A stretch of DNA of 54,287 bases, taken from a virus. Lineage: Duplodnaviria > Caudoviricetes. The number at the start of each line of letters is the position of its first letter. Position 1 is the stretch's first letter. The stretch is taken from the IMG/VR virus record IMGVR_UViG_3300017987_000113, positions 1-54,287 of that record; one strand, written 5' to 3'. Of this stretch, positions 13,644 to 52,638 are shown piece after piece. The position numbers were made by a program, and so were the translations under genes. The notes under the pieces are model-generated. The model worked only from the letters and a program-made list of their open reading frames with translations. It had not been told where the DNA came from and ran no database searches.

Positions 13644-14341
13644 TTTATTATTGCTATACCTGTTACTAATCCTGCAAGGCCCAAGTAAACCCACTTGACT
13701 GCCTTTTGCCTTTTACTGTCCTTTTTATAAATATCCCGCTGCGTCTGTGTAAGATGTAGCTGGTCTGCTAAATTCACATTCATAGAGTCTGCTACGTGCA
13801 GCATCATATCCTTATACGAAATTAAACTCTCATAGTTATTTATCAATCCCTGGGCTTCATAATACAGTTCTGTCATTTCCGTAAGCTGCTCCATACAATG
13901 TTCTCTTTCCTGTATTTTAACCACTGCATCTCTTATGGCCGGCATACGGATCAATACCGCTTTATGTGTAGTATCCTCGATGTAACCCAGCTGTGCATAA
14001 AGTTTAGGAATAAGCAAACTATCATGCAGAGTTTTTATACTGTCAATAACAATATTATGAACAGCCACCAGCTCTGAATATTCTGCCTCCATCCTTTCTA
14101 TCTTAAATTTACGCTCATTTGCTATACCCTTCACGCTATCAGCGACGATCTCCAGCTCCGAGTACAAAGATACCAGAGAGCTATAATCATCTCTTAAATC
14201 TGAGAGTGTATCATTAATCTGATCAAGTCTGAACTTATCACCTTTTCTCAAAGAACGCTGGTTAAGATATCCGGCAGTTAATATAGTAGATACTATAAGT
14301 AAAAGAAGAATCAATATTGCTATTATCTTATTCTTGCTCAT
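13640..14341 (-). CDS. Membrane-anchored coiled-coil protein (spanin-like)
   Basis: N- and C-terminal hydrophobic segments around a coiled coil; within lysis block. Confidence 0.5.
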   Translation of the reverse strand: MSKNKIIAILILLLLIVSTILTAGYLNQRSLRKGDKFRLDQINDTLSDLRDDYSSLVSLYSELEIVADSVKGIANERKFKIERMEAEYSELVAVHNIVIDSIKTLHDSLLIPKLYAQLGYIEDTTHKAVLIRMPAIRDAVVKIQEREHCMEQLTEMTELYYEAQGLINNYESLISYKDMMLHVADSMNVNLADQLHLTQTQRDIYKKDSKRQKAVKWVYLGLAGLVTGIAIIK

Positions 14342-30306: not shown

Positions 30307-30514
30307 GCCTATGCAAATTGTAAAGGGCAATCGTATTGCTTTTGACTCTGCAGACAACAGAGTAAGGGGAACAGTTACTTATGTAGGTAGCTATTATTTT
30401 TATTTAACCCTTGAGACTACCTTTACAACCTGTGCTACGTGGAAACCAGGTGAAAGCAAAATGTTTACTTTTAATTCTATAACTAATCTTAAACAATTAA
30501 AACCAAAGCCATGA
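30299..30514 (+). CDS. Hypothetical protein
   Basis: Coupled ORF. Confidence 0.5.
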   Translation: MTKPMQIVKGNRIAFDSADNRVRGTVTYVGSYYFYLTLETTFTTCATWKPGESKMFTFNSITNLKQLKPKP

Positions 30515-30642
30515 AAAAACTTATTTTTCTTTTTCTTATTATCTGTATGCTTGCATTGATGAGCTGTCAGAGTAGCCGGTGTACTACCGGGTGTCTTACT
30601 CCGGAACACAAAAGATTTCAAACATCACACTGCAGAAGATGA
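30511..30642 (+). CDS. Small lipoprotein
   Basis: MKKLIFLFLIICMLALMS-C lipobox-type signal, 43 aa. Confidence 0.55.
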   Translation: MKKLIFLFLIICMLALMSCQSSRCTTGCLTPEHKRFQTSHCRR

Positions 30643-30854
30643 TACCTGAAGATAGTTTCCTATTGCTTATAGGAGGGGGAGTACTGCTATTGCTGTTTCT
30701 CTCCTTCCTTCAGTTTATCAAGCTGCCCTGGCGTAGAACATCTACAGGCAGACGTACTGATAAAATCGAATGGCTGGTTGTTACCTGCACATTACTCTAT
30801 ATTTTCATATCAATATTTTTGAGGTTAATACAAATAGCAAAGCAGATATTATGA
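30579..30854 (+). CDS. Two-TM membrane protein
   Basis: Two hydrophobic segments; real start probably MIPED. Confidence 0.5.
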   Translation: MYYRVSYSGTQKISNITLQKMIPEDSFLLLIGGGVLLLLFLSFLQFIKLPWRRTSTGRRTDKIEWLVVTCTLLYIFISIFLRLIQIAKQIL

Positions 30855-31069
30855 ACTATAAATGGAACTGGAAAAAGTATATTCTCTATACAATCAGTAT
30901 GCTGGTTATTGTTATGGCTCTGGGCAACTTTATGAGCCTGTATGCAGACCGTGATGAGCGTGGAGCTGCTTTAGGGTATCTGATCATTGCAGTTATCGTA
31001 GTAGCCTTTATATGGCTCTTAAGGTATGCTATTATAAAACATAAACAAAAGAGACCACCAAAAACTTAG
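30770..31069 (+). CDS. Two-TM membrane protein
   Basis: Two hydrophobic segments; real start probably MNYKW. Confidence 0.5.
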   Translation: MAGCYLHITLYFHINIFEVNTNSKADIMNYKWNWKKYILYTISMLVIVMALGNFMSLYADRDERGAALGYLIIAVIVVAFIWLLRYAIIKHKQKRPPKT

Positions 31070-31266
31070 GTGTTGTTGTAAATACTTGCCGCAGTGAAGA
31101 AAGTAACTGAAAGATACTGGTTAGGTTTTAAACCGAGCAAGCATGAGTAGGGTTTAGGCAGTCATTAAGGAGTACCTGCAAAGGATACTTAGCAAGACAG
31201 AACGTTTTAACAGCCAAAACGGTGTAGATGTACTGGTGGCCACAGAGGATCTACCAACAACACTTA
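31067..31266 (+). ncRNA. Candidate ~200-nt multi-stem RNA
   Basis: TAGGTGTTGTTG pairs with CAACAACACTTA; inner hairpins CCT-GCAA-AGG, CGTTTT/AAAACG, GTAGAT/ATCTAC. Confidence 0.5.
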
Positions 31267-31306
31267 TGATATTCCAAACCAGGCTGACTAAGTGGAGTTA
31301 GCTGTT

Positions 31307-31343
31307 AAGAGAGGGGTGAAGTATAGTAACCTCTCTCTTTTTT
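31307..31343 (+). terminator. Terminator-like hairpin
   Basis: AAGAGAGGGGT...ACCTCTCTC followed by T6. Confidence 0.6.
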
Positions 31344-31351
31344 AAACTTAT

Positions 31352-31456
31352 AGATCTGAGAGGCCGAGCAGACGAGGCCAAGAACACTCTGCAATAATGG
31401 TGTCTATGAAACAGTGCTGAGAGGCACAGACGGCCTGGCACCCTCAGATCTTTTTT
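31352..31456 (+). ncRNA. Candidate ~100-nt structured RNA
   Basis: AGATCTGAG/CTCAGATCT and AGGCCG/CGGCCT nested stems; GTGCT-GAGA-GGCAC GNRA hairpin. Confidence 0.5.
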
Positions 31457-31520
31457 ACGAACTTTAGCACTCCGAAAGGAGATCATATTTTTTTATTCAT
31501 AGTTTTCAGATTTTAAGTTT

Positions 31521-31553
31521 AAGGAGGCAGTATAGTTACTGTCTCCTTTTTTT
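31521..31553 (+). terminator. Intrinsic terminator
   Basis: AAGGAGGCAGTA-TAGT-TACTGTCTCC followed by T7. Confidence 0.75.
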
Positions 31554-31599
31554 ACGTCTTCAAGTTAATTTAATATATTACAAACCAAAATTATCTATT

Positions 31600-32235
31600 A
31601 TGTTATTAACTATTCCTAAAATTAAAAGCTTGGAGTATAGGTTTAAGATACGTAGTATCTCACCATACCTCCAGCACAAAATGAATGATCAAGACCTTCA
31701 AGAGTGGCTTGAGCACAGGGGTCATATCATCGAAAACAAAAGACAAAACATTCCTCACGAAATAATGGCTGATTTTCACAGCTATATTGATGAGGATGGT
31801 AAGTATTACTTTCCGACAAAACATCTCAAGCAATCGCTTGTTGGTGCCGGAAGACTGACTAAAGGAAAGGTAGGTAATTCTACACGATCACTCACAAATG
31901 TTGTAGCTGGTATGTGGAGAATAAAACCTGAAAGAATTTATATCGGTCACTGGGATAGTATTATGATTGAATCTGCAATAAATCACAGTGTAAAGGCCAG
32001 GGTGTTACCTATAAGACCTCAATGGGATTGTCTGGAATTTGAATTCTTCTTAACAGTAATGAACGACACTATGACAGATAAAACCGTCGTAAAGATCGTA
32101 CAGGACTCAGGACTATTTCAAGGGATAGGAAACTACCGGCCTGAACACAAGGGAGAGTTCGGTATGTTCGAGATTGTAGAAGCTGAAAGGCTGACAACAA
32201 AAGCAAAAGGAAGACCTAAGAAAACAGCTGCTTAA
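31600..32235 (+). CDS. Stand-alone RAMP/Cas7-like protein (Vipr-like RNA-guided effector candidate)
   Basis: N-terminal strand FKIRSISPYLQH, GKYYFPTKHLKQSLVGAG, IRPQW and C-terminal Gly-rich loop GLFQGIGNYRPEHKGEFGMFEI, characteristic of RAMP folds; no other cas genes nearby. Confidence 0.75.
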   Translation: MLLTIPKIKSLEYRFKIRSISPYLQHKMNDQDLQEWLEHRGHIIENKRQNIPHEIMADFHSYIDEDGKYYFPTKHLKQSLVGAGRLTKGKVGNSTRSLTNVVAGMWRIKPERIYIGHWDSIMIESAINHSVKARVLPIRPQWDCLEFEFFLTVMNDTMTDKTVVKIVQDSGLFQGIGNYRPEHKGEFGMFEIVEAERLTTKAKGRPKKTAA

Positions 32236-32241
32236 TAGCAT

Positions 32242-32272
32242 AAAGGGGAGGCTTTAATAGTTTCCCTTTTTT
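32242..32272 (+). terminator. Hairpin plus T-tract between RAMP gene and array
   Basis: AAAGGGGAGGCT-TTAAT-AGTTTCCC followed by T6. Confidence 0.6.
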
Positions 32273-32274
32273 GA

Positions 32275-32845
32275 TGTAATGTTTTGTGGTGTTGAGTACT
32301 TTAAAGCAACGTAGCGTATGGTGAAGTCCAGTTAAGCGAAGTATTGTATGGTTGAGTGTTTTTAACTTCATGTATGGTATTGTGAATTACAGCACCGTTT
32401 GGCGAAGTAGGGTGATGTATAGTATTTTGTGGTGTAATAAAGTAAAGTTCCGTCCTGTTATGCTATGTGCTGTACGGTAGGGTTATGTATTTTGAAGTCC
32501 AGTGAAGTTCTGCATAGTGATGTAATGTATAGTATTTTTATGTTATGTTATGTGGAGCAATGTAAAGTGTGGTTGTGTGTCGTATTTTTAACGTATTGTA
32601 TCGTCAGCTATAGTATGGCAGGGTTAGGTAAAGTTAAGTTAAGTGTTTTATGGTTATGTGAGGTATTGTAAGGTGTCGTTCTGTTAAGTTTTTTATAATA
32701 CTTCTTGTAGGGTGAGGTCTTGTACTGTAACGTAAGGCAAAGTAAAGTGTTTTATTGCTGAGTCTTGTGTGGTGTGGTAAGGTAAAGCAAAGCATTTTAT
32801 CGTGTAGCGGAGTATTGTCAAGTAAGGTAAACTATAGTATTTTTC
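32275..32845 (+). repeat. Non-coding 5-nt-periodic NGY-NN array, about 11 T-tract-delimited units (putative guide-RNA array)
   Basis: e.g. AGCAA CGTAG CGTAT GGTGA AGTCC AGTTA AGCGA AGTAT TGTAT GGTTG AGTGT TTTT; roughly 100 pentamers with near-invariant G at position 2 and pyrimidine at position 3. Confidence 0.9.
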
Positions 32846-32867
32846 AAATTTAAAATAAAACAAAAAA

Positions 32868-33218
32868 ATGAACAAATTTAAAGAATTAATTATCAAGAGT
32901 GGCCCTGAGATAAAAGCTCAAAGGGCACAAACGCTGGCAGATGCTACCTTCAGAAAGCAAACAGCATTAGTGAACAAACTGAAAGATGAACTGGCAGAGA
33001 TAGATCTGCAGATCGAGCAGATCACAGATATTGCACCTACCAATACATACAGTTTGAAACCTGGAGGCAAGTCCTTTGATCCTTCTAAATGGGTTGAGGA
33101 GTTACACAGGCTTAAACGTGAAAGGTATAATACCGAGATCGATTTAAGCATTGCTGTTGAAACACTGAACAGCTGGTTTGGAGAAATCCCTAATGTTACA
33201 ACAGATCAAAAGGCATGA
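32868..33218 (+). CDS. Hypothetical coiled-coil protein
   Basis: 116-aa ORF directly after the array. Confidence 0.65.
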   Translation: MNKFKELIIKSGPEIKAQRAQTLADATFRKQTALVNKLKDELAEIDLQIEQITDIAPTNTYSLKPGGKSFDPSKWVEELHRLKRERYNTEIDLSIAVETLNSWFGEIPNVTTDQKA

Positions 33219-33718
33219 AGGTTTATCTGGCTAAATCTAACAAAAGCTCTGTCCAGGATATAATCTTTTTAAATGATTTATTCCGGAAATACAATATTGA
33301 GGTTGTTGAGCATAAAGGTGGAACATATAGCTATCTTCCTATTAAGAAAACTGATTACCTGTTTTTAGTAGCACCGGCAAACAATGTTACTTATAGATAT
33401 GAAGGCACAAAGCTACATACAGGGAAAGGCACAGGATCCGAAGTTAAGTATTTTCGTGAGCGTGTAGATATGGATAATGCTTATGCTTTAATACCAGGCA
33501 CTACTTTGGTTTATCCCATTATTCACATTCAACATTCGGATGCAGAAGAATGGGCAACAGATTTTTATAAGTTGACCTTAGCTGATATTTCTTTAAAGGA
33601 AGCTGATTACAAGCGTATGTTTCACCAGATTTCTTCACGCAAAACAACTGAACAAAAACAACCTGAGTCAAAGAAGAATATAATCGACTTTAAGGATATT
33701 GATTTTAGCGATTTATAG
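33215..33718 (+). CDS. Hypothetical protein (possible nucleoside deoxyribosyltransferase/TIR-like fold)
   Basis: MKVYLA..., TDYLFLV and GKGTGSEV pattern; weak similarity. Confidence 0.4.
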   Translation: MKVYLAKSNKSSVQDIIFLNDLFRKYNIEVVEHKGGTYSYLPIKKTDYLFLVAPANNVTYRYEGTKLHTGKGTGSEVKYFRERVDMDNAYALIPGTTLVYPIIHIQHSDAEEWATDFYKLTLADISLKEADYKRMFHQISSRKTTEQKQPESKKNIIDFKDIDFSDL

Positions 33719-46230: not shown

Positions 46231-47643
46231 ATGAGTGAACAAAAATTTGGAAAGTACAAATGCTCAGACTGTGGCCATGTTTATGATGATATAGGCGAAG
46301 GTCGTTGCCCTAAATGTAAAAGTACCGAAATAAGGCTAAATACTACTAAAAAGGATGAGCCTAAAAAGAAAGAAATCAGAGAAAAAGTAGAACAGCCAGA
46401 TATGTTTGGTAGCCAGGAAACAATACTGAAAAAACCTGTAACTAAAAAGGGTGCTTACAGAATGTACTTATGTGCTGAATGCGGTGCCATTATAACTGAA
46501 CAGCAAAAGCCTGATACCTGTCCTGTAGCTGGTTGCAGCAGTACTACAATTTATCCTTTAACTTCTGATAATAAAAAGAAGGTAATTGATAGTGGTGTTA
46601 AACCGTGGAAATATGAAGATGGTATGGTTAAGCCTGGTGAAAAGCAAGAATGGATATGTGATAAGTGCCATACTTTATTTAAAGCAGAAAAGCATATTGA
46701 AACATGTCCTTTTGAGGGTTGCAATGGAGGTACAAGTATATGGACTCAGGCTAATATAGACAGGCATATAGCTTCAGGTAAACCTGCATTTAAAGTTAAT
46801 AAAGAAACCGGTGAAGTAACCGATATACTTAAAGGTAAAACTTTAGGTGGTGTCGGTGTAGATCCTAAAGAGATACCTGATGAAGTTTCTGAACCAGATC
46901 CAGATCCAGTTAAGGATGATAGCTGGAAACTTGAAAAAGACAAAGCTATTAAAGATGATACTCCGGATGAATCAACAGAAAGTGCAATTGATACTACAGA
47001 GGAAACAGTGGATGATGAACCAGTGGAAGAAAAATCCTATGAACAAATAGTAAAAGAAAACAATGAACAGGCGGGTGATGAAAATATTACTATAGGTGCT
47101 GATAGCGTAACTGAAACAACTACCGGCTCCGGATTAGCTATATCACATAAGGGTAATATGAACTTCTTTACACAAATGGAGAAATACCTGGGCAAAGGAT
47201 TAAAGTCTATTACTATTACTGTTCAAAAGAACCTTAATGAACTTACGGTTGTCTTTCTTCCTGTATCTGCAGCTGATGATCCTGCTACACACAATTTTAT
47301 TCCATTAACCTTTACTGATACTGCAGAAAAACTGGACAGCGATTTCTTAGATGATATTGCCTCTCCTATGGAGAAAGTAACAGATTTCTGTAACAATGTA
47401 AAAGCTTTTGAAGACCAGCTTAAAGAAAAAGAGAAACAAACTAAAAAAGCTAAGGATGAGAAAGAGAAAAAGGAAAAAGAATACAAAGCCCTTATATCCA
47501 AAGGCGATAAAGCCATGGAAGCGAAAAAATACCAGGATGCTCTCGGACACTACGGAAAGGCCAAAAGCATTAAGGATACAAAAGAAGTTAAAGAGAAAAT
47601 TGATAAAGCCAGCAAAGGTGGCCAAAATACTATGAACCTATGA
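46231..47643 (+). CDS. Zinc-ribbon repeats fused to PRTRC system protein E-like domain
   Basis: Three CxxC...CP motifs, acidic linker, then MNFF...LTVVFLP....DPA...IPLTFT.TAEKLD..F...I..P..., ending in a TPR-like helix pair. Confidence 0.7.
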   Translation: MSEQKFGKYKCSDCGHVYDDIGEGRCPKCKSTEIRLNTTKKDEPKKKEIREKVEQPDMFGSQETILKKPVTKKGAYRMYLCAECGAIITEQQKPDTCPVAGCSSTTIYPLTSDNKKKVIDSGVKPWKYEDGMVKPGEKQEWICDKCHTLFKAEKHIETCPFEGCNGGTSIWTQANIDRHIASGKPAFKVNKETGEVTDILKGKTLGGVGVDPKEIPDEVSEPDPDPVKDDSWKLEKDKAIKDDTPDESTESAIDTTEETVDDEPVEEKSYEQIVKENNEQAGDENITIGADSVTETTTGSGLAISHKGNMNFFTQMEKYLGKGLKSITITVQKNLNELTVVFLPVSAADDPATHNFIPLTFTDTAEKLDSDFLDDIASPMEKVTDFCNNVKAFEDQLKEKEKQTKKAKDEKEKKEKEYKALISKGDKAMEAKKYQDALGHYGKAKSIKDTKEVKEKIDKASKGGQNTMNL

Positions 47644-48113
47644 TAATTACAATAGACGTAAGCGAACTTCATGTTTCAAGTGGAGAGCTTGAAAAACAAC
47701 TTATAAAAACTATCAAAAGAGAGGTTGTTGCTCAGATAAAAAAAGACACCGAAAAACAGATAGAAGATACTATCCAAAGAGTTGTAAAGGAAGATGTAAG
47801 AAAAACTATTTACCGAAAAGCACAACGATTTGTTGCAAAAATATTAGACACTACCAAATTCTCAAAAGATGGTTATAGCGATTCAAAAAGAGAATTAAGC
47901 CTGGAAGAATATATTGAGCATAAAATTCATGCTGATCGAAACTGGAATAGTCCAAAAGAACATATTGATAAAAGGGCAAAAGAAATTGCTGATGAACTTA
48001 AAAAGAGATATGATCTTCTGTTTGCTACCCAAATAGTATCTAAGCTTGAGGACAAAGGATTGTTAAAAGAAAATGTAAAACAATTAGTTGATACATTAAA
48101 TCAGAAAAAATGA
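47640..48113 (+). CDS. Hypothetical protein
   Basis: ORF track. Confidence 0.6.
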   Translation: MIITIDVSELHVSSGELEKQLIKTIKREVVAQIKKDTEKQIEDTIQRVVKEDVRKTIYRKAQRFVAKILDTTKFSKDGYSDSKRELSLEEYIEHKIHADRNWNSPKEHIDKRAKEIADELKKRYDLLFATQIVSKLEDKGLLKENVKQLVDTLNQKK

Positions 48114-48811
48114 AAACATCAGCGGTAAAAAATATATTAGATTCTATCATACAAGATTTTGCTCACAGAGGAGTACCTTCAGCTTTAGGAGATTTTATAA
48201 AAGAACAGGCCTATATAACTGGTGGTTGTATTCCTTCTATGTTAATGGGTGAATTTGTCAATGATATAGATGTTTACTTTAGAAAAGATCCTAAATTAGC
48301 AATTAAGAAAAGCAATTTTACAGAAAAGACAAAACCTATATCTGATACTGAAAATGCTCTTACCTTTGAATTTAAACGTGGAGAACATACCTATATCATT
48401 CAGCTTATAAAAGGTTTTTATGGATCTCCTCAAGGTATTACTGATAGCTTTGACTGGGCACATATCAGATCTTATTATGATGTTAAGAAAAAGATACTGG
48501 TAGTACCTCCTGAGACTTATAGATTAATTACTGACAAAGAATTGATCTATACCGGAAGTGATTATCCATTAAGCAGCTTGCTGCGTATCCGAAAGTATAT
48601 GAAGAAAGGCTGGACAATGGATATTGTAGAAGGTATTAAGATAGCTATAGATATTCAGAAGGTAAACTTTAAATTACGCAAAGAGCTGGAAAGACATATT
48701 AATGGAATAGATCCTATGTACTGGACAGAGATAAGCGATAGTTTAAAACCTAAATATAATAGCTTGGAAGACCTCTGGATGGATTTGTGTAAATTTAAAC
48801 TTGATGAATAA
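48110..48811 (+). CDS. Pol-beta-superfamily nucleotidyltransferase
   Basis: YITGGC...NDIDVYF, FDW, R.RKY.KKGW. Confidence 0.75.
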   Translation: MKTSAVKNILDSIIQDFAHRGVPSALGDFIKEQAYITGGCIPSMLMGEFVNDIDVYFRKDPKLAIKKSNFTEKTKPISDTENALTFEFKRGEHTYIIQLIKGFYGSPQGITDSFDWAHIRSYYDVKKKILVVPPETYRLITDKELIYTGSDYPLSSLLRIRKYMKKGWTMDIVEGIKIAIDIQKVNFKLRKELERHINGIDPMYWTEISDSLKPKYNSLEDLWMDLCKFKLDE

Positions 48812-49085
48812 GGAAGATTTATATACCATTATCGTGAAGCCTAAGTCCTCTTGTGATGCCTGTGAGCTTGATCTTAAAAAATTATGGACAAAACGTAATT
48901 TTAAGGCTATAGAGCAACTAACTGGACATGATATGACCAACAGGTGTATTAAGTGCTTTAAGCCCTTAAAAAGCCCTAAATCGATCCGTATGTGTATGGG
49001 GCCCACCTGCAGGAAAAAGTTTAAAGCCGATTACTGGAAACTTAGGCAAATTGATATGTTTAAAGAAGAAGAAAATGACCAATGA
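48801..49085 (+). CDS. Zinc-finger protein (DUF6011-like)
   Basis: RCIKCFKPLKSPKSI...MGPTC. Confidence 0.65.
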   Translation: MMNKEDLYTIIVKPKSSCDACELDLKKLWTKRNFKAIEQLTGHDMTNRCIKCFKPLKSPKSIRMCMGPTCRKKFKADYWKLRQIDMFKEEENDQ

Positions 49086-49311
49086 AGAACAAAGACTAAA
49101 CCGTGTAGAAGCTATCTTTACGGAACTCAGAGAGAGAAAGGCATTTGTTGAGTCTCCTGATACACATAAATACCAGGTACGATCTTATGAGACCGTACAT
49201 TGTACCGATGCTTTATATCATAATTTAACTGACAGAGAGATAGACTTTCTTAAGAATTTTAATAAAGTAAGAATAGCTGAATTAGAACTTGAACTTAAAA
49301 AACTACTGTAA
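49051..49311 (+). CDS. Hypothetical protein
   Basis: ORF track. Confidence 0.5.
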   Translation: MICLKKKKMTNEEQRLNRVEAIFTELRERKAFVESPDTHKYQVRSYETVHCTDALYHNLTDREIDFLKNFNKVRIAELELELKKLL

Positions 49312-49835
49312 TGAATACTGACTTATCTAACAAACTTTACCATGACAGGAATGATCTGAAAATGATTATCGATCATATAGAAGCTAATACATCTGAAGGT
49401 ATAGATGGAGAAGAACTGTTTAAAGCTATAAAGCAGGTACATGGACATCTTGTAGAACTATCCGAATATCAGGTAAGACCTACACCACCTGAAGATGCAG
49501 CCCGTGAAATAGAGAAATTTCTTAACTCAACCGGAGCTGATATCCTAACTATTACTGATAAGCTGGCTAACAGAACACACCCTACGCTACAGCAATCATT
49601 TACCAGAATGGTGTTTATGTTTATCCTAAAAATGGCAGAGAAAAACTATTTTGACGGAAGAAACAAAGGTGCTGTTCAGGAATGCAGAACTATGCTTAAT
49701 GCCTGGCGGGAAAAGAAAAAGCAGGAAGAGATTAAAGTTATGATTGAAAGAGGATCATCACCTGAGCGTGCAGCCGAAAGAGCTGAAGAATATATTGAAC
49801 AAATGTATCCACACAACTATTTAGCACATATTTAA
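49311..49835 (+). CDS. Hypothetical protein
   Basis: HPTLQQSF.R and DGRN motifs. Confidence 0.6.
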   Translation: MNTDLSNKLYHDRNDLKMIIDHIEANTSEGIDGEELFKAIKQVHGHLVELSEYQVRPTPPEDAAREIEKFLNSTGADILTITDKLANRTHPTLQQSFTRMVFMFILKMAEKNYFDGRNKGAVQECRTMLNAWREKKKQEEIKVMIERGSSPERAAERAEEYIEQMYPHNYLAHI

Positions 49836-49836
49836 A

Positions 49837-50043
49837 ATGGCAAAACATCAGAAACTTGAAAGAGTATTCCATTTTGATGGAACAGATTATCCGGATATTA
49901 ATCCCACGTTACCTCCGGAAAAGATTATTGAACTGTACTCAGCTACAGTACCGGCAATGACTACTGCTTCAGTAGGAAAGTCCGAGGTAAAAAAAGATAA
50001 GCTGGTATTTAATATTTCCAAGACTGCTAAAACAAAAGGATAA
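49837..50043 (+). CDS. PRTRC system protein C (ubiquitin-like)
   Basis: LERVFHF....PD.NP.LPPE.I..LYS...P.MTTA.V...TKG C-terminus. Confidence 0.85.
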   Translation: MAKHQKLERVFHFDGTDYPDINPTLPPEKIIELYSATVPAMTTASVGKSEVKKDKLVFNISKTAKTKG

Positions 50044-50110
50044 TGCTACCCAGGGAATACTATAAGTATATTACCGAGAAAGATGATAACAAGAAACATT
50101 ATCGTGAAAC

Positions 50111-51217
50111 ATGGCAAGACGAGCAAGCAATAGGAGCAATTCTAATGGAAGAAAAAAACCAGTTAGAAGAAAGACAGCTGCTACCAAGTTCAGAGATTCC
50201 ATTAATTCCTTAGACTTAAGAGGCAGTATAAATATACCAATAGGCGATGCCCAGGCAATAGATATTCTCAGAGATGTAGGATATGACCTGCAGGAGTATT
50301 CTGATGCCTATTTAGGCACTCAATTATTCGATAGGCATACAAAGCCTTCACAATTTTTAGCCTACCTTCTTCGCTGTATGTCTGATCAAGTTAACCACCC
50401 ATGGATGCTTTATGAAAAATATGGAAACTCCGGATCTTATGAGCTAATCTATTATGTAGATACAGAATATTGGGATTGGCCTAAGCTGGCTCCCTTACAC
50501 TGGATAGAAGAAGTATATAAAAGAAGCAGAAGCCTATTTGGTGTTGTCTTACGCTTATTAAGATACCTGCATGCAGTAAAATATATACCAATGTGGTGGA
50601 GTAATATCTCATGGCAGATACATGATGAATGGAAAACAAAGGTTAAAGAGTCTTACTATGAAGAACCGACACTTTCAGAATTAAGAGCTGAAGTAGAAGA
50701 AATGAAAGGATTTCCTGCTAAGATCGAAAAGACTATTAAGGATGAAAACTTTAATATGATTAACTGGTGGGAAAGAAAGGCTATAAAAGAAAGAATAGAT
50801 AGAATGAGGCCCAAAGGTTCATTTATGAATCTTGTTAAAAAGTGGCTGTTAATGACCTTTGAGTTGATGGATTGTCTGGATTACAGAGATTGGTATCAGC
50901 CTGATATCGATTATGATGTATCTGCTTTAAACAGGCACTATAATGATGAAAGAGCTGACCCATTAGATCTGGTAGGTTTTTGTTGGAAGAATGATGATAA
51001 TTTTACTTCAGAACTTCAGTATATTATGGAAAATAACCAGGACTATGGATATTTCCGAAGAACTCTGCAGATACCAGATTTACAAAACTTAGACAAGTAT
51101 AATGAACAATATAATATTTATGAAAATTTCTTTAAACTAACACACGAAATAGCCGATGTTTATAACGAGGAGCTCAGTATCCGTAACGGAACCAAAACTC
51201 TTATTGATCGTTTATGA
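50111..51217 (+). CDS. Probable PRTRC system protein F-like
   Basis: Position between C and B; size. Confidence 0.5.
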   Translation: MARRASNRSNSNGRKKPVRRKTAATKFRDSINSLDLRGSINIPIGDAQAIDILRDVGYDLQEYSDAYLGTQLFDRHTKPSQFLAYLLRCMSDQVNHPWMLYEKYGNSGSYELIYYVDTEYWDWPKLAPLHWIEEVYKRSRSLFGVVLRLLRYLHAVKYIPMWWSNISWQIHDEWKTKVKESYYEEPTLSELRAEVEEMKGFPAKIEKTIKDENFNMINWWERKAIKERIDRMRPKGSFMNLVKKWLLMTFELMDCLDYRDWYQPDIDYDVSALNRHYNDERADPLDLVGFCWKNDDNFTSELQYIMENNQDYGYFRRTLQIPDLQNLDKYNEQYNIYENFFKLTHEIADVYNEELSIRNGTKTLIDRL

Positions 51218-51896
51218 ATCTTCTTCTATGTACTCTGACAATCCGGAATATATGGATGCAGAAGAAATGGAAGATAAATACTACATAGAACTGGCTACAA
51301 TAAGAAACGGCCAGATAGGTGAAGCAAAACCTATATCCTCAGAAGGTATAAGAAATATCCGAAATGTGTTTGCACCCAAAGGATATGAATTTATAAGATC
51401 CGGAACTCTGATAAACAGAAACCTGATTTATTTTAATACCAGTCCTGCAGACAGATTGTATATCTGGCACAGACCCGCACAACCAACACACTTTAATCAT
51501 GTTAATGAGAAGTTTTGTGGTATAGTTAATATGCCTAACCTTCTTTTTGTAATGGCTAAAGGAAGTCTTTCTGTATATGCTGTAAAAACCAGCAATATAA
51601 AAGCCTCTACAAAATTATTCTTTTCACCCTTACCTAACAATATGGGAAACAAAATATGTATGGGTACAGCAAGAGGCAAGAAGTCTGAAACTGATATAAT
51701 GAAATATATTACATCCTGGGAAGATGCTTATCTGAAAAGTAATTTCTCTGATCATGGTGCAGATATAAAAATGCTTACAGAAATCGTAGGCAGCAAAAAA
51801 CCTTTTCCTACAAGCAAGCTAAAGCCTGTTAAAGATTTAACCGTAGAAAAACTTATACGAAAAAATGAGACACTACATTACTTCAGAACTGATTAA
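51156..51896 (+). CDS. PRTRC system protein B (prokaryotic E2 family D)
   Basis: W..PAQ, MPNLLF, LSVYAVK, LFFSPLPN....ICMG, WE..Y..S.FS. Confidence 0.8.
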   Translation: MFITRSSVSVTEPKLLLIVYESSSMYSDNPEYMDAEEMEDKYYIELATIRNGQIGEAKPISSEGIRNIRNVFAPKGYEFIRSGTLINRNLIYFNTSPADRLYIWHRPAQPTHFNHVNEKFCGIVNMPNLLFVMAKGSLSVYAVKTSNIKASTKLFFSPLPNNMGNKICMGTARGKKSETDIMKYITSWEDAYLKSNFSDHGADIKMLTEIVGSKKPFPTSKLKPVKDLTVEKLIRKNETLHYFRTD

Positions 51897-52638
51897 TTCT
51901 GTTAATCCTATTACGGTAACTATGGTAGGAGCTGGTGGTACCGGATCAGAACTGGTAAATAAATTAGCCAGGATGAACCATGCTATGCTCAAACTGGGCC
52001 AGCAAGGATTAAAGCTACAACTTGTAGATGATGATATTGTTACTGAAGCTAATGCAGGCAGACAACTGTTTACAGAAAGTGATATAGGCTATAATAAAGC
52101 CTCAGTACTTATAAGCAGAATAAACCGTTTCTATGGATTTGCATGGAAGGCTATACCAAGCAGAATACTTAATGTCGATCAGGTAATAGCTCACCGGAAT
52201 AATATTCTTATTACTTGTGTAGATAAAGCTGTTACCCGTAAGCTATTTGCCCGGGGCGTAGGTAAATATCCTAATAACAGTAATTATGCCCAGCCTCAGC
52301 GTACAGGGTATTACTGGTTAGATACTGGTAATGACAGAGACACCGGCCAGGTAATATTAGGTACGATAAATTCTATCGAGCAACCGGAATCTGAATATGA
52401 AACTGCAGATCGTTTACCTAACGTGGTAGAGGAGTTTCCTGATATGAAGGATAGCAAGAATGATGGGCCCAGTTGCTCTTTAGCAGAAGCCCTGGAACAG
52501 CAAGATCTCACTATCAATAATATGGTAGCTTCATGGGCATACTCTTTACTGTGGTCTATGCTAAACAGATACTATCTGGAATACAGAGGAGTATTTATTA
52601 ATCTTAATACCATGCGTACAAACCCTATCGCTATATGA
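51865..52638 (+). CDS. PRTRC system ThiF/E1-like protein
   Basis: VGAGGTGS, DDDIVTEANAGRQ.F, ITCVD...R, YWLDTGN...GQVILG, PSCSLAEALEQQDL.IN. Confidence 0.92.
   Translation: MRHYITSELINSVNPITVTMVGAGGTGSELVNKLARMNHAMLKLGQQGLKLQLVDDDIVTEANAGRQLFTESDIGYNKASVLISRINRFYGFAWKAIPSRILNVDQVIAHRNNILITCVDKAVTRKLFARGVGKYPNNSNYAQPQRTGYYWLDTGNDRDTGQVILGTINSIEQPESEYETADRLPNVVEEFPDMKDSKNDGPSCSLAEALEQQDLTINNMVASWAYSLLWSMLNRYYLEYRGVFINLNTMRTNPIAI

Follow-up and report, generated by a model that had tools for sequence, protein, structure and literature searches.

The DNA analysed here, 54,287 nucleotides (nt) of a virus and called the window below, spans positions 1 to 54,287 of IMG/VR record IMGVR_UViG_3300017987_000113 and carries a small gene followed on the same strand by a long tract of pentamer repeats. 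The gene, vipr, is an open reading frame (ORF) on the + strand at 31600–32235 which starts with ATG, encodes 211 amino acids (aa) and has its stop codon ending at 32235. The first pentamer containing G followed by a pyrimidine (G-Y) starts at 32276, after a gap of 40 nt, and the tract, 569 nt long, closes with its last T-run at 32844. We have very little doubt that gene and tract together form a VIPR system (for Viral Interference Programmable Repeat) carried by an uncultured crAss-like phage. The original prediction, made from the letters of this DNA, had proposed a candidate VIPR-like system consisting of a 211-aa ORF with RAMP motifs and a periodic tract of about 570 nt; both elements are present where expected, and the proposal is supported by the fold of the protein, by its homology to the Vipr protein of phage SUSP1 and by the conservation of gene and array.

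Viral VIPR systems, which pair a single RAMP with RNAs of alternating GGY/NN motifs, exist in the literature as the original prediction had assumed and are described in four 2026 preprints (10.64898/2026.04.26.720920, 10.64898/2026.04.26.720927, 10.64898/2026.10.21.760802, 10.64898/2026.10.15.759431). As far as their accessible text goes, the SUSP1 system consists of a Vipr protein and of vrRNAs with 9–16 YNNGG repeats, each of which is occupied by one protomer; the GGY bases turn outward into the protein, and pairing with DNA is left to the NN bases, every third base being skipped. Transcription is silenced as a result; the natural targets lie in satellites and prophages, and an inter-phage role is reported (10.64898/2026.04.26.720920, 10.64898/2026.04.26.720927). 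The same text lists seven VIPR types, alternative repeats of the forms NNNGG, YNNNG and NNNNG, and array architectures which include staggered and ribozyme-interspersed ones (10.64898/2026.04.26.720920), and WGT/NN or TGH/NN motifs are given for 21 clusters (10.64898/2026.10.21.760802). Since VIPR, non-canonical repeats included, is already in print, the present locus is a further case of a known kind of system and opens no new category.

The Vipr protein

The translated ORF carries the motifs SPYLQH, YYFPTKHLKQSL and GIGNYRPEHKGEFGMF, a glycine-rich loop (G-loop) reading G175-I-G-N178-Y-R-P181 and a thumb arginine, R139; among its homologues G175, G177, R180, P181 and R139 are conserved. The ORF has no Pfam match and no NCBIfam model, and its only PHROGs match, phrog_4652, is not annotated with a function. 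The best match in the Protein Data Bank (PDB) found by phmmer is 36pp_D, the ‘SUSP1 Vipr protein’, at E 0.014, with residues 16–188 aligned to 7–186. A family profile made of 82 full-length homologues of the ORF finds this chain again at E 1.1e-26, its positions 1–185 falling on chain residues 1–191 of 202, and this is the sole PDB match of the profile at E ≤ 1. By an exhaustive HMMER search the Vipr family comprises 528 representative clusters at E ≤ 1e-3.

An AlphaFold2 model of the product built with an alignment (pLDDT 94.2, pTM 0.87) adopts a Cas7/Csm3 fold; the single sequence without alignment gave a pLDDT of 31. When this model was compared with the PDB by Foldseek, 90 chains were retrieved at E ≤ 1e-3, with E values down to 7e-7. 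Among the matches listed, the lead entries come from CRISPR complexes of types VII and III (Csm, Cmr) and from Cas7-11, and 6ifn_E is also present, the Cas7 chain which the VIPR authors, according to the accessible text, used as the query of their structure search (10.64898/2026.04.26.720920). TM-scores to the Cas7 chains are 0.45–0.52 with a Foldseek probability of 1.00, at a sequence identity of 7–16%. Because of the full-length profile match to SUSP1 Vipr and of the Foldseek matches to Cas7 that include 6ifn_E, sequence and model identify the 211-aa protein as a RAMP of the Vipr family, related to Cas7, with a single predicted RRM, a glycine-rich loop and a thumb. The RAMP/Cas7 fold and the kinship with Vipr that the original prediction had anticipated are thus borne out.

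[quoted passage not shown] It differs from them in a step of 5 nt instead of 6, in a guide that would be non-contiguous and in having no second RRM. Unlike class 1 effectors, the locus is accompanied in the window by neither a CRISPR repeat-spacer array nor Cas5, Cas6, Cas10 or Cas1-2. The scan for Cas families covered 58 ORFs of the window, in which 83 ORFs reach at least 90 aa: none was detected in the vipr ORF (no Pfam match) or in 7 neighbours at E ≤ 0.1, nor among 50 further ORFs at E ≤ 1e-5 (Pfam), and Tandem Repeats Finder recorded no CRISPR-like array in the window. The expected absence of cas genes and CRISPR arrays therefore held among the ORFs scanned.

Anatomy of the pentamer array

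The lag-5 identity over 32270–32845 is 0.503, compared with a mean of 0.298 (standard deviation (sd) 0.019, maximum 0.356) in 1000 shuffles; in the same tract, lags of 10 to 30 in multiples of five reach 0.43–0.47 and other lags 0.21–0.29. When 100-nt segments were followed across the 54,287 bases, the sole region above the mean plus 3 sd was 32231–32881. All GYNNN runs of at least five consecutive pentamers fall within 32276–32831 on the + strand, and outside the array the whole window holds only seven runs of 4 pentamers, on both strands. The 5-nt periodicity claimed at first is therefore real, but not strict as then stated, the register slipping by 1 nt three times along the tract.

A constant handle had also been postulated, in the form of a triplet; the handle is there, but it is a dinucleotide. 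Among 115 pentamers the G position is G in 69/115, the next position being T in 71 and C in 12, and the base preceding G is T in 42, A in 34, G in 31 and C in 8. In the pentamers of parsed units a G precedes G-Y in 21 of 94, and this freed base before G is A or T in 61–71%. The repeat is thus N-G-Y-N-N with only G-Y fixed, rather than the canonical GGY/NN (YNNGG) repeat. In the frame used for the non-canonical arrays in the accessible VIPR text it corresponds to Y-N-N-N-G, and as a fixed trinucleotide it comes close to WGT/NN; as in those arrays, a Vipr-like fold adjoins the array and the guides have about ten repeats. The array shows no more secondary structure than shuffled sequences (minimum free energy (MFE) z −0.67), and a search of 30500–33500 against Rfam gave nothing near a gathering score. 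The possibility that the three variable bases are in-frame sense codons was discarded, stop codons not being avoided (4/70 observed, about 4 expected from base composition).

From lag-5 identity, pentamer parsing and T-run boundaries, the array (32276–32844, + strand, the strand of vipr) resolves into about ten units, cut by T-runs of 4 to 6 bases, which measure 45–88 nt and contain 6–11 G-Y pentamers each. Unit 1 (32276–32363) comprises 5 and then 11 G-Y pentamers, a single non-G-Y pentamer at 32301–32305 standing between the two runs and possibly making the unit two guides, and ends with T5. Unit 2 (32364–32428), shifted by +1 in register relative to unit 1, has runs of 3 and 7 pentamers and ends with GTATAGTATTTT; in its register follow unit 3 (32429–32493) with 10 consecutive pentamers, unit 4 (32494–32539) with 8 and unit 5 (32540–32589) with 9. 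A further +1 shift precedes unit 6 (32590–32649), with 11 pentamers of which one is irregular, and unit 7 (32650–32694) has 8 pentamers and ends with T6. Unit 8 (32695–32753) begins with a 14-nt non-periodic leader before its 9 pentamers, the register changing by −1, which unit 9 (32754–32798) keeps with 8 pentamers. Unit 10 (32799–32844) holds 6 pentamers followed by an irregular one and by one last pentamer, and ends with TATAGTATTTTT. All units lie on the + strand. Between the vipr stop and the array, a hairpin followed by a T-run occupies 32244–32272 (+ strand; the fold of 32236–32280 has −16.4 kcal/mol). Its role could be that of a terminator or attenuator, or it might mark the 5′ boundary of the transcript made from the array; the terminator scan was silent here because the loop exceeds the length that it allows.

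The units end in a near-constant pentamer, G-Y-N-T-T, which runs into the T-run (T4–T6) and is often preceded by GTATA; an ending GTTTA-GTATA-GTTYT is common to the units of relatives. No structured 3′ tail was found on the units of this array, these pentamers and the T-run standing in its place. The gaps between successive G-Y runs are a multiple of five in 9/12 cases in the window, and in 8/8 and 11/14 cases in the arrays of two relatives (L008 and L016). As the gaps are mostly multiples of five, the guides form one lattice punctuated by a U-rich pentamer.

Relatives differ at the unit ends, some having hairpins and one having tRNA-like minihelices, and at least four array architectures occur within this one Vipr clade. 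On a Draconibacterium contig from a metagenome-assembled genome (MAG) (L017:3590-3995), three G-Y vrRNAs are each followed by the same element of ~45 nt, with a stem of 11–12 bp, a 7-nt TTCGATT loop and −16 to −19 kcal/mol, which resembles a tRNA acceptor/T-arm minihelix; neither ARAGORN nor Rfam calls this element a tRNA. The element might bring in RNase P or RNase Z for cleavage of the array; the accessible text of the VIPR papers mentions hammerhead spacers and not tRNA-like ones. In another relative (L010:4632-5370) a spacer of ~48 nt, almost the same from unit to unit, recurs between the guides and may contain a promoter for each of them, and in a third (L002) the spacers between guides contain hairpins.

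Relatives of the locus and the G-loop residue

The comparison drew on 13 IMG/VR loci (26–47% identity), 3 loci on genome contigs and 4 distant named phages. In 13/13 IMG/VR loci a lag-5 tract touches the vipr homologue, downstream or on both sides, and appears nowhere else in 5–8.5 kb. In 3/3 genome-contig loci (on MAG contigs of Bacteroidales, at 46% identity, of Draconibacterium and of Korobacteraceae) such a tract likewise adjoins the gene, one extra isolated 100-nt segment in the Bacteroidales locus (L016) also exceeding the threshold, and 4/4 distant phage relatives (UmaThurman, Ecliptus, Cy-LDV1, LESphi2) have a pentamer array beside the gene. The proposal that homologues would be accompanied by 5-nt-periodic arrays accordingly holds, whether these follow or precede the gene, for 16/16 loci of the close clade and for the four distant relatives. 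In five complete or near-complete genomes of relatives, G-Y runs of at least 7 pentamers occur only beside vipr, with one exception. In the record of L010 (G002:C1:43887-43926), eight G-Y pentamers stand in a row on the − strand, past the array by ~0.9 kb and on the strand opposite to it; among six phage genomes this is the sole run of at least 7 away from the main array.

All-against-all clustering of ORFs from the 16 related loci leaves vipr as the only gene common to them, and the ORFs flanking it in the window have no relative in these loci (tblastn, E ≤ 1e-3). An accessory vap gene is not conserved at the sequence level and the neighbours have no family match above the cut-off, no structural search for vap-like folds having been made. 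As judged from sequence, the module is vipr plus array without a conserved accessory gene. A different view of the tract would be that it is not an RNA gene at all and that a DNA element (bent DNA, an iteron field or an origin) or a decayed coding repeat happens to lie beside an unrelated RAMP-like gene. The tract is known at the level of DNA only, it opens the block of early genes on the + strand, and spurious ORFs of 42–68 aa cross it. However, the gene–tract pair is kept in 20/20 loci, all other neighbours differing; the motif is strand-specific, always on the vipr strand; a step of 5 nt fits neither the helical repeat of DNA nor a reading frame; and the RNA-contacting residues of the protein covary with the repeat. 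Moreover, the homologous SUSP1 tracts are, according to the accessible text, sequenced RNAs that co-purify with the protein (10.64898/2026.04.26.720920). We regard a DNA element or decayed repeat as extremely improbable.

Two further observations concern the surroundings of related modules. In Gordonia phage UmaThurman (NC_031249.1; L019:2081-2501) a canonical GGY/NN array directly follows the Vipr homologue gp39, and the region is annotated as protein-coding gene 40 (hypothetical protein, 2128–2451), which is probably a misannotated vrRNA array. Three related phage loci carry, within 1–1.5 kb of the VIPR module, tRNA genes and a tmRNA gene that scores 90.8 bits with Rfam (L002:5023-5541; L008:5427-5803; L016:4780-4854).

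The covariation of protein and repeat centres on the G-loop. The accessible text on the SUSP1 structure attributes the reading of the first G (G1) to H17 and to D177, which forms a hydrogen bond with it, the holding of the second (G2) to R138 and W178, and that of the pyrimidine (Y3) to R179 among others (10.64898/2026.04.26.720927). In the phmmer alignment these residues correspond in the window protein to H26, N178, R139, Y179 and R180, respectively. The residues contacting G2 and Y3 are thus kept as in SUSP1 (R138/R139, W178/Y179, R179/R180), as is the basic residue beside the skipped base (K33/R40); unlike SUSP1, the window has Asn in the place of D177 and G-Y in the place of GGY. All 17 of the 17 G-Y-type loci have a G-loop of the form G-x-G-S/N-[YF]-R-P, and a G precedes G-Y in 4/81 pentamers of the Bacteroidales MAG locus and 7/33 of the Draconibacterium one, besides the 21/94 of the window. 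The four canonical GGY loci, those of the distant phages, all have D or E at that G-loop position (4/4), and there a G precedes G-Y in 113/117 pentamers.

Over the 82 homologues the fourth G-loop position is D in 34, S in 25, A in 12, N in 3 and another residue in 8. In a quick maximum-likelihood tree, rooted for drawing only, the window protein falls in a clade of 14 (SH-aLRT 100) with S or N in 12, A in 2 and no D or E, and across the family the character of the G-loop has changed several times. The change from Asp to Asn or Ser covaries with the repeat type, and we read it, from the sequences, as a loss of G1 recognition. Such a loss (D177 to Asn178, Ser in relatives) would be the reason why only G-Y is fixed in this clade. 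The accessible part of the published VIPR text states neither a link between the Asp-to-Ser/Asn change and a freed first base nor the in-register punctuation by T-runs.

Proposed mechanism, target searches and phage context

With the type II VIPR of SUSP1 (PDB 36pp) the locus has in common a full-length homologous Vipr with a Cas7-like fold and, downstream on the same strand, a gene array for pentamer-repeat RNAs, all phage-encoded without cas genes or a CRISPR array. The differences are that units here have 6–11 pentamers in 45–88 nt, as against 9–16 repeats in transcripts of ~100 nt; that one or two constant pentamers and a T-run replace the pseudoknotted 3′ tail; that the guides abut, mostly in one register, and no vap gene is conserved; and that SUSP1 is an Escherichia phage whereas the present phage is crAss-like with a probable host among the Bacteroidota. 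The observed family membership, fold, array anatomy, conservation of gene with array and covariation of protein with repeat are, taken as a whole, likely best explained by a VIPR locus with about ten vrRNAs, a SUSP1-like mechanism and departures specific to the clade.

By homology with SUSP1, one Vipr protomer would bind each pentamer, and the G and the pyrimidine would be flipped into pockets of the protein, R139 and Y179 receiving the G and R180 the pyrimidine. The two bases after the pyrimidine would then pair with double-stranded DNA bearing the same dinucleotides with one skipped base between them, and binding should repress transcription, again as in SUSP1, without any nuclease. We think it rather probable, by analogy, that the code reads two bases and skips one, and we incline, a little less firmly, towards competing phages or other mobile elements as the targets. 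The guides would be delimited by the U-rich pentamer and the T-run, not by a structured tail. Since most guides stay in one 5-nt register, the array might be made as one or a few precursors. Vipr could cover the G-Y pentamers and leave the U-rich punctuation bare, to be cleaved or to end transcription. Two routes of maturation are conceivable, a Vipr-coated precursor being cut at the bare U-rich punctuation or transcription terminating or initiating at each T-run, and to neither do we give better than an even chance. A bolder proposal, which we think improbable, is that the clade represents a stripped-down VIPR with a grammar of its own, in which the freed third base widens or changes the code, the guides form a 5-nt lattice with U-rich punctuation, and no ribozyme, tail or accessory protein takes part in maturation. 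If true, this would be the smallest natural programmable DNA binder, made of a 211-aa protein and 45-nt guides.

The departures from the type system (no GGY, tail or vap) mean that the code could differ from that of SUSP1. Three bases of each pentamer might contact the target, contiguously or with a skip, or the freed base might tune affinity. Three of the five pentamer positions vary, and the G1-reading residue of SUSP1 is lost; His26, the equivalent of the G1 contact H17, is nevertheless kept, so that the freed base may still be buried. Paralogous guides differ 7 times at the freed position against 4 and 4 at the other two, but the 29 aligned pentamers behind this count are too few to decide. 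Exact searches with two bases and one skip gave no convincing target, although contiguous triplets, which form a subset of the searched patterns, were likewise without a match. In matches that are chance-level or unconfirmed, the freed and the skipped base are identical at 2/8, 0/9 and 5/10 positions, near chance, and the A+T content of the freed base, 61–71%, fits an unconstrained position. A code other than that of SUSP1 seems unlikely to us.

Several points weigh against the assignment of the locus to VIPR. The handle is non-canonical, with no GGY; the units of this array have no structured 3′ tail; no accessory vap gene is conserved; the similarity of the single vipr ORF sequence to SUSP1 Vipr is low (E 0.014); and the array is known here as DNA, its transcription and its binding by Vipr being inferred. 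The lack of a GGY repeat does not exclude membership, because the VIPR papers, in their accessible text, accept YNNNG and WGT/NN variants. In addition, no target search returned a convincing target. The second run of unit 1, searched with 10 pentamers as an exact one-skip pattern, had 0 matches in IMG/VR and 0 in metagenomes; two long guides of relatives L004 and L010, searched in the same way, had 0 matches each in IMG/VR; and, when the guides of six phages (the window and five relatives) were compared with each other's whole genomes, matches were not in excess, 0/34 guides reaching p < 0.05 under 0, 1 or 2 skipped bases. The scans of the IMG/VR and metagenome collections accept only exact matches and have low power, and their blanks for that reason carry little weight. 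A local search of the guides against the window and the 13 loci under seven pairing rules yielded no signal above permuted guides, 5-nt pairing rules trivially matching the arrays themselves.

Unit 3 was the guide with exact one-skip matches. With 9 pentamers it had 1 match in IMG/VR, in which the tenth pentamer is mismatched and the skipped base is off the wobble position, and which was judged to be chance. In metagenomes the same 9 pentamers gave 10 matches in ~5 sequence groups, about as many as a rough estimate expects by chance. The best of them (20/20; L044) lies in a bacterial gene for a DinB-like Y-family polymerase, with the skipped base at codon position 2. These matches were also set aside as chance-level, no second guide of the window converging on any of the ten loci.

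A further question is whether the guides regulate the genes of the phage itself, for example the timing of late genes, rather than competitors. Unit 7 (32653–32692) matches 15/16 guide bases at 13815–13838, antisense within a gene of 233 aa in the structural module; all skipped bases of this site fall at codon third positions, and 7/4000 permutations of pentamer order reach 15. Unit 4 matches 14/16 at 33662–33685 in the gene two ORFs downstream, a score reached by 9/300 permutations, and here too the skipped bases fall at codon third positions. Because nine guides were tested, the family-wise odds for the unit 7 match are only about 0.02. The match moreover includes the constant last pentamer, and once that pentamer was left out, none of the guides of the six phages scored significantly, whether on its own genome or on those of the others. 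The 233-aa gene yielded no relative in which conservation of the site could be tested, and the VIPR authors report in the accessible text that there is no self-targeting at a match of at least 80% (10.64898/2026.04.26.720920). The near-matches of unit 7 at 13815–13838 and of unit 4 at 33662–33685 are suggestive, but they do not hold up when the constant last pentamer is left out, and that of unit 7 stays unconfirmed; self-regulation appears decidedly unlikely, and we continue to favour competing phages or other mobile elements as targets.

The window represents part of the genome of a crAss-like phage, with a completeness that the record puts at 62%. Its structural genes lie on the − strand up to ~27 kb and its early genes on the + strand, and its markers are the Crassvirus major capsid protein (E 3.9e-20), a crAss ring protein and a DnaB helicase; the portal bears a distant likeness to those of crAss-like and Flavobacterium phages. 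Among named assemblies, the closest relatives of the Vipr protein sit on MAG contigs of Bacteroidales and Draconibacterium, and a host among the Bacteroidota is likely. The same DNA occurs in sediment and seawater metagenome contigs of three studies, which may include the source of the record; the 7 runs listed with it include no RNA run, and contigs of 4 runs carry it with no variants.

Upstream of vipr lies a non-coding stretch of 490 nt (31070–31560) with an MFE z of −3.7 relative to shuffles and no 5-nt periodicity. It contains three hairpin-plus-T-run elements (~31307–31345, 31407–31457 and 31521–31555) and may hold small RNAs or stacked terminators. Two of the hairpin loops contain GTATAGT, a motif which also ends two guides; 4 of its 11 sites in the window are within 31321–32533. 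Farther away, at 46231–52638 in the + strand block of the phage, lies a PRTRC-like module, with PRTRC system protein E (E 1.5e-23), a prokaryotic E2 family D protein (2.5e-17) and a ThiF-family E1-like protein (7e-14).

It has been proposed that VIPR systems are the viral ancestors from which the CRISPR RAMPs arose and that they could serve as compact programmable DNA binders. The locus adds a well-delimited VIPR case in a crAss-like phage of marine or sediment origin; about the hosts and conflicts of this group little is known. Its format is compact: no accessory gene is conserved, the guides measure 45–88 nt, and 569 nt accommodate as many as ten of them. This would make it appealing for multiplexed repression, provided that the code is confirmed. 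The association of an acidic fourth G-loop residue with GGY repeats, and of Ser or Asn with N-G-Y, amounts to a rule which could predict the repeat type of a system from its protein alone and which could also guide engineering of the handle.

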